A stretch of DNA of 64,000 nt from Escherichia coli (GTDB taxonomy: Bacteria > Pseudomonadota > Gammaproteobacteria > Enterobacterales > Enterobacteriaceae). The notes beneath the pieces were generated by a model that saw nothing but the letters and a program-made list of their open reading frames with translations, was not told the DNA's origin and did not search any database. The stretch is taken from assembly GCF_001677475.2 (NCBI RefSeq), contig NZ_CP015229.1; one strand, written 5' to 3'. Position numbers and translations under genes: made by a program. Shown here piece after piece: positions 35,091 through 57,901 of this stretch (position 1 is the first letter of the stretch; each line of letters starts with the position of its first letter).

Positions 35091-35160
35091 TTGCCGGGGA
35101 TATCCACCCGGCAATGTGTGGATGCCTGATGCGACGCTTAACGCGTCTTATCAGGCCTAC
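35091..35160. repeat. hairpin plus REP element downstream of gltP
   Basis: TTGCCGGGGATATCCACCCGGCAA hairpin followed by GCCTGATGCGACGCTTAACGCGTCTTATCAGGCC REP. Confidence 0.8.
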
Positions 35161-35908: not shown

Positions 35909-35935
35909 AACAGCCTCCGAAAGGAGGCTGTAGAA
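35909..35935 (-). terminator. rho-independent terminator of fdhF
   Basis: minus strand reads CAGCCTCC-TTTC-GGAGGCTG followed by TTTTTTT, 10 bp after fdhF stop. Confidence 0.8.
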
Positions 35936-35944
35936 AGGACTGTA

Positions 35945-38092
35945 TTACGCCAGTGCCGCTTCGCGCAGGCGAGTTTTCAACTTGTTGTACTCGTCAATCA
36001 CGTACTGCTCGGCGGCGCGCTGATCGGCGATCGGCTCGACGCGCACGGCGCAGTATTTGTATTCCGGCGTTTTCGTAATCGGGCTTAAGTTTTCGGTAAC
36101 CAGCTCGTTACAGGCACCAATCCACCACTGGTAGGTCATATAAATCGCCCCTTTGTTCGGACGATCGCTGACCTGCGCACGGGTGATAATTTTGCCTTTA
36201 CGCGAGTGCACCCAAACCAATGCCTCATCTTCAATACCCAGACGTTTGGCGTCTTCGGTATTGATTTGTGCGTAGCCAGGTTCATCAGCCAGCGCCGCCA
36301 GTGCCGCACAGTTACCGGTCATCGAACGGCAAGAGTAGTGACCAACTTCACGCACCGTTGACAGTACCATCGGATACTCGTCGGTGAGTTTGTCGATTGG
36401 CGCTACCCAGTCGCAGGTGAAGAACTGCGCCAGACCGTTCGGGGTATCAAACTTCTCTTTAAACAGATAAGAAGTCCCCTGATCGGCATCTGAAGTATCG
36501 CGGCAAGGCCACTGAATGAAGCCCAGTTCGCCCATTTTCTCGTAAGTCGCACCGTAGAAATCCGGGCACAGATGACGCAACTCATCCCAGATCTCCTGGG
36601 TGTTGTTGTAGTGCATCGGATAACCCATACGGGTGGCGATTTCACTGATGATTTGCCAGTCCGTTTTCAGATCCCATTTCGGTTCAACCGCTTTGAAGAA
36701 ACGCTGGAAGCCACGGTCAGCCGCAGTAAACACGCCTTCATGCTCGCCCCACGACGTTGACGGTAAAATAACATCCGCCGCCGACGCGGTTTTGGTCATA
36801 AAGATGTCCTGAACGATGACCAGTTCCAGATCTTCAAAGGCTTTACGTACTGCCGACAGCTCCGCGTCAGTTTGAAGCGGATCTTCGCCCATAATGTACG
36901 CGGCACGCACTTCACCATGCGCTGCGCGGTGCGGCAGCTCGCTGATGCGATAACCGGTATGAGCAGGCAGGCTTTCCACGCCCCAGGCTTTGGCGAATTT
37001 CTCGCGGTTAGCCGGATCTTTCACGTACTGGTATCCCGGATACGTATCCGGCAGCGCGCCCATATCGCAGGCACCCTGCACGTTGTTCTGACCACGAACC
37101 GGGTTTACACCCGCATGCGGCTTACCGAGGTTACCGGTCAGCATCGCGAGGCTGGTCAGAGAACGCACGGTTTCCACGCCCTGGTAGAACTGGGTTACAC
37201 CCATGCCCCACAGGATGGCGGCGCTTTTCGCCTGGGCATACATCCGTGCCGCCTGACGAATCTCACTGGCGCTGACGCCGGTGATATCTTCAACCGACTC
37301 CGGCGTGTAGCCTTCAACGATTTTACGATACTCTTCAAAGCCTTCTGTACGGGAAGCGACGAAAGCTTTGTCGTACAGGTTTTCTTCAATAATGACATGA
37401 CCCATCGCATTCAACAGCGCGATGTTCGAGCCGTTTTTCAGTGCAATGTGCATGTCAGCAATGCGCGCGGTTTCAATTTTGCGCGGATCGCAGACGATAA
37501 TTTTCGCCCCGTTACGTTTAGCGTTAATTACGTGGTTCGCCACGATTGGGTGGGAATCCGCCGGGTTGTACCCGAAAACGAACACTAAATCGGTATTATC
37601 AATTTCGTTAATAGCATTGCTCATTGCGCCATTACCGACCGATTGGTGCAGACCTGCAACCGATGGGCCGTGTCAGACACGAGCGCAGCAGTCAACGTTA
37701 TTGGTACCAATAACGGCGCGCGCAAATTTTTGCATTACATAGTTGGTTTCGTTACCCGTACCACGCGAGGAGCCGGTCGTCTGGATGGCATCCGGACCGT
37801 ACTTCTCTTTGATGGCGCTCAGGCGCTCGGCAACGTAATTCAGTGCCTCATCCCAGGAAACAGGTTCGAGTTTGCCGCCACGCTGGCGACGGATCATGGG
37901 GGTTTTCAGGCGCGGGGTCAGGATCTGGGTATCGTTAATGAAGTCCCAGCCATAATAACCCTTCAGACACAGGGTACCCTGGTTGGTTTTCCCCTGCGCT
38001 GCCTCCGCCCGGACGATTTTGCCGTTATCGACGACCAGGTTGATTTTGCAACCTGATGCGCAATAGGGGCAAACCGTGACGACTTTTTTCAT
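35945..38092 (-). CDS. fdhF: formate dehydrogenase H (selenoprotein; UGA at codon 140 decoded as selenocysteine)
   Basis: two same-frame ORFs (139 aa + 559 aa) separated only by TGA at 37673..37675; N-terminal CPYCASGCKINLVV 4Fe-4S motif; total 715 codons. Confidence 0.95.
37625..37672 (-). ncRNA. SECIS element (mRNA stem-loop directing SelB-dependent Sec insertion)
   Basis: sequence immediately 3-prime of the in-frame UGA (CACGGCCCAUCGGUUGCAGGUCUGCACCAAUCGGUCGG) can fold as a hairpin. Confidence 0.8.
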
Positions 38093-38142
38093 CGGTCTCG
38101 CTCCAGTTAATCAAATCACGCATACGCGCTCTCGACTACAGT

Positions 38143-38159
38143 ATGCATCTTTTATGCCA
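38143..38159 (-). promoter_or_regulatory. sigma-54 promoter of fdhF
   Basis: minus strand TGGCATAAAAGATGCA matches the GG-N10-GC -24/-12 consensus, about 50 bp upstream of fdhF start. Confidence 0.7.
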
Positions 38160-38289
38160 CATTTTATTTGGGGTCATTCCCTGATATTACGGGCACTATT
38201 TATTCAAAACTCTGACGAAAAACAGGCTGTCGTCAGTTTTGACGTGACGAAACGAAATACCGCGTGACAGCCATCACGCGGCAGACATT

Positions 38290-57742: not shown

Positions 57743-57807
57743 GATGGTGACCTCAGTTAAGAGAAGCCAGTTAAGTGTAGTTCGAAATTTATACAGATGA
57801 GAGGGAA

Positions 57808-57883
57808 GCCTGATAAGACGCGGTCAGCGTCGCATCAGGCTGTCGGCATCGTTGCCGGATGCGGCGCGAGCGCCTTATCCGGC
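57808..57883. repeat. BIME (two REP elements) between yjdN and yjdM
   Basis: GCCTGATAAGACGCGGTCAGCGTCGCATCAGGC and GCCGGATGCGGCGCGAGCGCCTTATCCGGC. Confidence 0.8.
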
Positions 57884-57901
57884 TTACCGATCACAATACA
57901 A

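Follow-up and report, generated by a model that had tools for sequence, protein, structure and literature searches.

On the minus strand of the 64,000-nucleotide stretch of Escherichia coli DNA analysed here (the window), two open reading frames follow each other in the same frame with a TGA codon between them. The question raised by this arrangement is whether the frames represent two genes, a gene inactivated by a nonsense mutation, or a single gene in which the internal stop codon is read as an amino acid. The ORF list gives a 139-aa ORF at 37673..38092 and a 559-aa ORF at 35945..37624, both with an ATG start. When 35945..38092(-) is translated as a continuous frame, 716 codons result, and the only stops among them are the TGA at codon 140 (37673..37675) and the terminal TAA at codon 716 (35945..35947). 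The 16 sense codons that follow the TGA (codons 141-156, 37625..37672), HGPSVAGLHQSVGNGA, contain neither ATG, GTG nor TTG, and the first Met past the TGA is codon 157, the ATG from 37624. The preliminary description of the locus had reported the two same-frame ORFs, the TGA and the 16 codons that separate it from the Met, and all of its coordinates and counts were exact; the combined length of 715 codons that it gave was confirmed by the single-frame translation. It had further proposed that the two ORFs are one selenoprotein gene, fdhF, with the TGA as Sec140. Our results bear this out through complete identity to solved structures, a Pfam domain (PF00384) that spans the TGA, a match to the RNA model RF01988 and a TGA codon that 80 of 81 orthologous loci share. 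We consider it virtually certain that 35945..38092(-) represents one gene, fdhF of E. coli or of a very close relative, whose product is formate dehydrogenase H, a selenoprotein of 715 residues, and in which UGA140 is recoded via a SECIS element and SelB.

The identity of the gene was established from the joined translation, in which codon 140 was represented by X. Over residues 1-715 it matches the PDB entries 1AA6, 1FDI, 1FDO, 2IV2 and 7Z0T, described as 'formate dehydrogenase H', with 100% identity, and the sequence common to these entries has a non-standard residue at position 140. The alignment with FdhF that the preliminary description had proposed as a check thus places a non-standard residue exactly at the TGA. 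The NCBIfam equivalog model TIGR01591 (formate dehydrogenase subunit alpha) matched residues 6-685 over its entire length (profile 1-672 of 672) with a score of 1089 bits against a cut-off of 666.25. Three Pfam domains were identified, namely Fe4S4 (PF04879) at residues 1-54, Molybdopterin (PF00384) at residues 61-487 and the molybdopterin dinucleotide-binding domain Molydop_binding (PF01568) at residues 576-682. The match to PF00384 runs continuously through the TGA in the joined translation. When the fragments were searched separately, the 139-aa piece matched profile positions 1-80 and the 559-aa piece positions 98-352; positions 81-97, which are matched by neither, correspond to the 16 codons 141-156.

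Codons 136-141 read CARV-UGA-H and fit the metal-ligand motif CAR-x-(U/C)-H. Codon 140 is aligned with X in 1AA6 and with X or C in 9T1S, 7QV7, 9WXB and 7BKB, and in distant solved homologues the corresponding residue of the motif CAR[VLI](U/C)H is either X (Sec) or Cys. In the 1AA6 and 1FDO structures, which go back to Boyington et al. in 1997, Sec140 is said to ligate the molybdenum. Judged from its identity with the characterised protein, the fdhF product is predicted to oxidise formate and to assemble into formate hydrogenlyase.

The RNA around the TGA was compared with known structural models. The SECIS_2 model of Rfam (RF01988) matched 37626..37680(-) over its full length (model 1-55 of 55) with a score of 87.1 bits, above the gathering score of 70, and an E-value of 1e-18. 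The element begins 5 nt ahead of the UGA and ends 47 nt behind it, and the minimum free energy fold of the 55-mer (-19.7 kcal/mol) is identical to the Rfam consensus structure. Within it lies the minimal SelB-binding apical hairpin of 17 nt, GGUUGCAGGUCUGCACC, at 37645..37661(-), which corresponds to nt 15-31 counted from the U of the UGA. The stem of the folded hairpin has 6 pairs, with a U bulging out at nt 17/18, and is capped by a GGUC loop (G22-G23-U24-C25) at 37651..37654. The published SECIS element of E. coli fdhF is a 40-nt structure with a 17-nt upper stem-loop located 11 nt from the UGA, in which U17, G23 and U24 are critical (PMC8659212). The hairpin at 37645..37661 agrees with this description in its length, its distance of 11 nt from the UGA and its U17, G23 and U24.

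Thus, of what the preliminary description had said about the RNA, the presence of a SECIS hairpin 3' of the TGA is borne out by the RF01988 match and by the suppressed synonymous variation described below, and the comparison with the canonical fdhF SECIS that it had called for revealed the same structure, the same GGUC loop and bulged U and the same 11-nt spacing. The placement needs to be adjusted: a hairpin does follow the TGA, with its core at 37645..37661, but the Rfam element begins 5 nt before the UGA. The stability of a hairpin in 37625..37672, which had been suggested as a test, turned out not to discriminate. A 43-nt stretch has a folding energy of -14.9 kcal/mol (z = -1.28 versus shuffled sequence), and the 51-nt stretch of the preliminary description has the same energy; its z is +0.10, and 103 of 200 shuffles are as stable. 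The energy is not distinct from that of the shuffles, and stability is uninformative because shuffled sequences fold about equally well. Other Rfam matches at or near fdhF were discarded: the related family SECIS_3 reached 35.8 bits at the site, below its gathering score of 63, and Atu_Ti3 (E = 1.8) and Yar_3 (E = 5) were dismissed as chance matches. The observation as a whole goes beyond chance because the evidence comes both from homology, with a Pfam domain across the TGA, and from an RNA model, with the SECIS_2 match on the TGA.

A scan of species-representative genomes yielded 80 Enterobacterales loci with 80-100% protein identity, and one RefSeq locus brought the total to 81. Codon 140 is TGA in 80 of these loci and TGT (Cys) in the remaining one, L066. 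Among the 78 complete CDSs, a count that leaves out two loci ending at a contig edge, TGA at codon 140 is the sole in-frame stop in 77, and L066 has none. The mean amino acid identity to the window is 0.94 in the part N-terminal of the TGA, 1.00 for codons 141-156 and 0.91 in the C-terminal part. In the 78 orthologous CDSs, codons 141-156 are 100% identical at the amino acid level, and the only changes are synonymous third-position changes at P143, Q150, G153, N154 and A156. This conservation on both sides of the TGA argues that both halves are maintained and that the 16 codons are translated rather than being an intergenic gap.

The 17-nt hairpin core shows no change in any of the 82 sequences compared. 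We calculated the synonymous-codon entropy per codon for 79 distinct CDSs and found 0.00 bits for codons 144-149, as compared to a gene mean of 0.98; this is the lowest 6-codon window of fdhF, and the lowest 10- and 14-codon windows likewise start at codons 139-144. The complete lack of synonymous variation at the SelB-binding hairpin is independent evidence of a constraint at the RNA level, on top of the coding constraint. No compensatory base-pair changes were found across the 82 SECIS sequences, a set that is uninformative in this respect because the upper stem never varies. In the lower stem there were only one-sided G-C/G-U changes, and in 51% of the 82 sequences pair 12/34 is not formed. 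This variability fits the published result that the upper hairpin alone is essential.

The preliminary description had regarded a Cys at this position in orthologues as evidence against recoding, which is back to front. Alternation between Sec and Cys at the Mo-ligand position is the norm in this family; a Cys in orthologues therefore speaks for the Sec reading, which is not weakened by the one Cys orthologue found (1/81). The locus concerned (L066:1501-3639 in CALYPF010000061.1, a MAG of an uncultured Enterobacteriaceae bacterium) has 87% amino acid identity, TGT at codon 140 and no in-frame stop, and it keeps the invariant 17-nt SECIS core despite the TGT. It looks like a 'fossil' SECIS left after a recent change from Sec to Cys, or the TGT may stem from faulty assembly. 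A second fdhF copy in this MAG, L077, has TGA. Second fdhF paralogues that keep both the TGA and the SECIS core were also found in Klebsiella, Raoultella, Cedecea, Serratia and others (L045, L048, L056, L065, L069, L071, L072 and L081). These eight copies have no sigma-54 -24/-12 motif in the upstream 120 nt and start a few nucleotides past another ORF; they therefore appear to lie inside an operon and to be regulated differently.

Within the species, the 2,148-nt fdhF sequence has a counterpart in 5,418 of 5,426 RefSeq complete E. coli genomes, with 95-100% identity. Four of the matches come from records with a plasmid label, two copies are present in one genome, and 7 of the 5,426 genomes lack a match. 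Of 5,420 E. coli records, 5,411 carry the 55-nt SECIS element without any change; the variant in strain 14EC007 consists of just two synonymous changes, both outside the core. As compared to the closest RefSeq complete E. coli genomes examined, fdhF of the window differs at 11 nt (99.5% identity), and all of these differences are synonymous. The window thus stems from a lineage that this collection does not represent exactly, possibly Shigella. The gene order mdtO, mdtP, fdhF, yjcO, gltP, nrfG is the usual one, according to the RefSeq annotation of the syntenic region.

RefSeq presents the same 2148 nt as one CDS. The RefSeq records that were listed or opened contain a single CDS, fdhF, which some of them name 'formate dehydrogenase H subunit alpha, selenocysteine-containing'. 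Nevertheless, the preliminary description was right to warn that naive annotation would truncate the gene. The exact 559-aa fragment has been deposited as a separate protein from at least 1,000 contigs (UniRef W8TX44_ECOLX, in a cluster of 11,377 members), and so has the exact 139-aa fragment, also from at least 1,000 contigs (UniRef W8SXU3_ECOLX, in a cluster of 2,374 members). The split mis-annotation of fdhF is thus real and widespread, whereas the curated RefSeq/PGAP annotation is right. As a matter of annotation hygiene, gene calls for fdhF should give a single CDS of 715 codons and record codon 140 as a translation exception (Sec).

The sequences flanking the gene were inspected for signals of transcription and translation. 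A Shine-Dalgarno sequence, GGAG, can be read at 38101..38104(-), 8 nt upstream of the fdhF ATG (38090..38092). No Shine-Dalgarno-like motif was seen in the sequence AATCGGTCGGTAATGGCGCA that precedes the internal ATG at 37624. A putative sigma-54-type -24/-12 promoter element, TGGCATAAAAGATGCA, is located at 38144..38159(-), 52-67 nt upstream of the ATG. The pattern TGGCAYN6TGCW has one match in the window as compared to 0.92 expected, a count close to chance that proves nothing alone. We retained the candidate on account of where it lies and of its recurrence in orthologues: of 80 upstream regions compared, 66 have the motif 50-70 nt ahead of the ATG. The fdhF promoter is the classical sigma-54, FhlA- and formate-dependent one. 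Upstream of the sigma-54-like element, 38160..38260(-) contains repeated motifs of the TCGTCA/TGACGA type, GTCACGTCAAAACTGACGAC ... TTTTTCGTCAG, which sit where we would expect the FhlA upstream activating sequence of fdhF.

At the other end, 14 nt past the TAA, a terminator-like hairpin, ACAGCCTCCTTTCGGAGGCTGT, at 35910..35931(-) is followed by seven T (TTTTTTT). It was recognised by its match to a consensus and has 9 pairs, 6 of them G-C. The same consensus scan detected a terminator-like hairpin at 38258..38283(-) behind the upstream gene mdtP, which marks fdhF as probably a transcription unit of its own. None of selA, selB, selC and selD is located within the 64-kb window, in which the tRNA scan detected no tRNA gene; selABCD are assumed to be present in the rest of this genome. 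Elsewhere in the window, matches at the Rfam gathering level were obtained for the Hfq-binding sRNA sraL at 17197..17337(-) (153 bits) and for the enterobacterial sRNA STnc630 at 63552..63717(+) (178 bits). The REP/BIME-type repeat naRNA4 scored above its gathering score at 24589..24660(+) and 57807..57884(-). A further naRNA4 match at 35092..35157, on both strands and with a sub-threshold score of 44.8 bits, represents a REP-like repeat between gltP and yjcO; lying downstream of yjcO, it is unrelated to fdhF and was set aside.

Could a nonsense mutation at codon 140 have inactivated fdhF? A frame broken by a stop codon and fragments stored as separate proteins in public databases are what such a pseudogene would look like. 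However, this reading is refuted by the conservation data: 80 of 81 species-level orthologues share the TGA at this codon, and 5,411 of 5,420 E. coli records agree in all 55 nt of the SECIS element. The purifying selection on both halves, the lack of any further stop, the dedicated recoding signal behind the stop codon and the full-length 715-residue chain of the solved protein point the same way, and a pseudogene is scarcely conceivable. Mechanical ORF calling does yield two ORFs, as expected for two genes that encode a 139-aa Fe-S protein and, from the ATG at 37624, a 559-aa molybdopterin protein. This split would cut one Pfam domain, though, and the presence of PF00384 profile positions 81-97 in the supposed gap by itself excludes two independent genes. 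Moreover, the 16 gap codons are 100% conserved as protein and vary at third positions only, the internal ATG is not preceded by a Shine-Dalgarno sequence and the crystal structure is that of a single chain, so that the probability of two genes is close to nil.

It is also extremely improbable that UGA140 is read by a near-cognate tRNA as a standard amino acid (Trp or Cys), or that it is a sequencing error for TGT or TGC. The TGT in L066 indicates that a Cys form is viable, and several distant solved homologues have Cys at this position. Still, a SECIS element and a strong RNA-level constraint are found at the site, the TGA is the same across thousands of independently sequenced genomes, the PDB entries of the exact sequence carry a non-standard residue at 140 and SelB- and SECIS-dependent insertion of selenocysteine has been published (PMC4513850). 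A different possibility is that the UGA and SECIS serve a purpose beyond the insertion of selenocysteine. With about 60-70% of the ribosomes terminating at UGA140 (PMC4513850), an abundant 139-residue fragment with the Fe4S4 domain could have an independent function. Another option is a selenium-sensing switch, in which ribosomes that stall or terminate at UGA140 would uncouple translation from transcription and lower the level of fdhF mRNA; such a switch has been proposed for Treponema primitia fdhF (PMC3892789). None of the data in this analysis supports the fragment role or the selenium switch, and we regard this possibility as very unlikely.

The preferred explanation is therefore a single selenoprotein gene, for which the following mechanism is proposed. 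At UGA140, the mRNA just downstream would fold into the SECIS hairpin, and the 17-nt apical stem-loop located 11 nt past the UGA, with its GGUC loop and bulged U, would be bound by SelB in complex with Sec-tRNA(Sec) and GTP. SelB would then compete with RF2 and bring selenocysteine to the A site, after which translation would resume through codons 141-715. Sec140 would become a ligand of the molybdenum centre, and the product would serve as the formate-oxidising subunit of formate hydrogenlyase. For SelB binding, Sec insertion and the catalytic role we infer this from published work on the same E. coli gene, in which SelB- and SECIS-dependent insertion of selenocysteine was obtained on an fdhF fragment both in vivo and in vitro (PMC4513850). 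The recoding efficiency of fdhF is only about 30-40% (PMC4513850), and many ribosomes therefore terminate at UGA140.

The feature is already known, as the founding textbook example of selenocysteine recoding in bacteria, and nothing new was learned about it here. The closest known system is fdhF of E. coli K-12 and its product FDH-H (1AA6, 1FDO, 1FDI and 2IV2, and 7Z0T in the FHL complex). All 715 of 715 residues are identical, including Sec140, the genes are found in the same context (mdtP, fdhF, yjcO, gltP, nrfG), and the differences at the DNA level are synonymous only. The recoding signal likewise corresponds to the fdhF SECIS of Rfam RF01988, with a full-length match above the gathering score, the same structure, loop, bulged U and 11-nt spacing, and no difference detected.

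The comparison extends to fdnG and fdoG (Sec196) and other Sec-containing formate dehydrogenases (1KQF, 1H0H, 6SDR), which belong to the same Mo/W-bisPGD superfamily as the fdhF product. The fdnG/fdoG-type enzymes, like fdhF, have a Sec metal ligand at the homologous position, encoded by an in-frame UGA followed by a SECIS. They differ in that they are about 1,000 residues long, periplasmic, exported by the Tat pathway and membrane-associated, and have their own SECIS sequences, whereas the fdhF product has 715 residues; the match between them is strong in the first ~250 residues only. Finally, the Cys-type homologues of FdhF (such as HDCR FdhF 7QV7, Fdh 7BKB and FdsA 6TG9) share the same fold and the CAR-x-[U/C]-H motif. 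These homologues use a normal Cys codon, for which recoding is not needed, whereas fdhF in the window has the UGA and the SECIS element.
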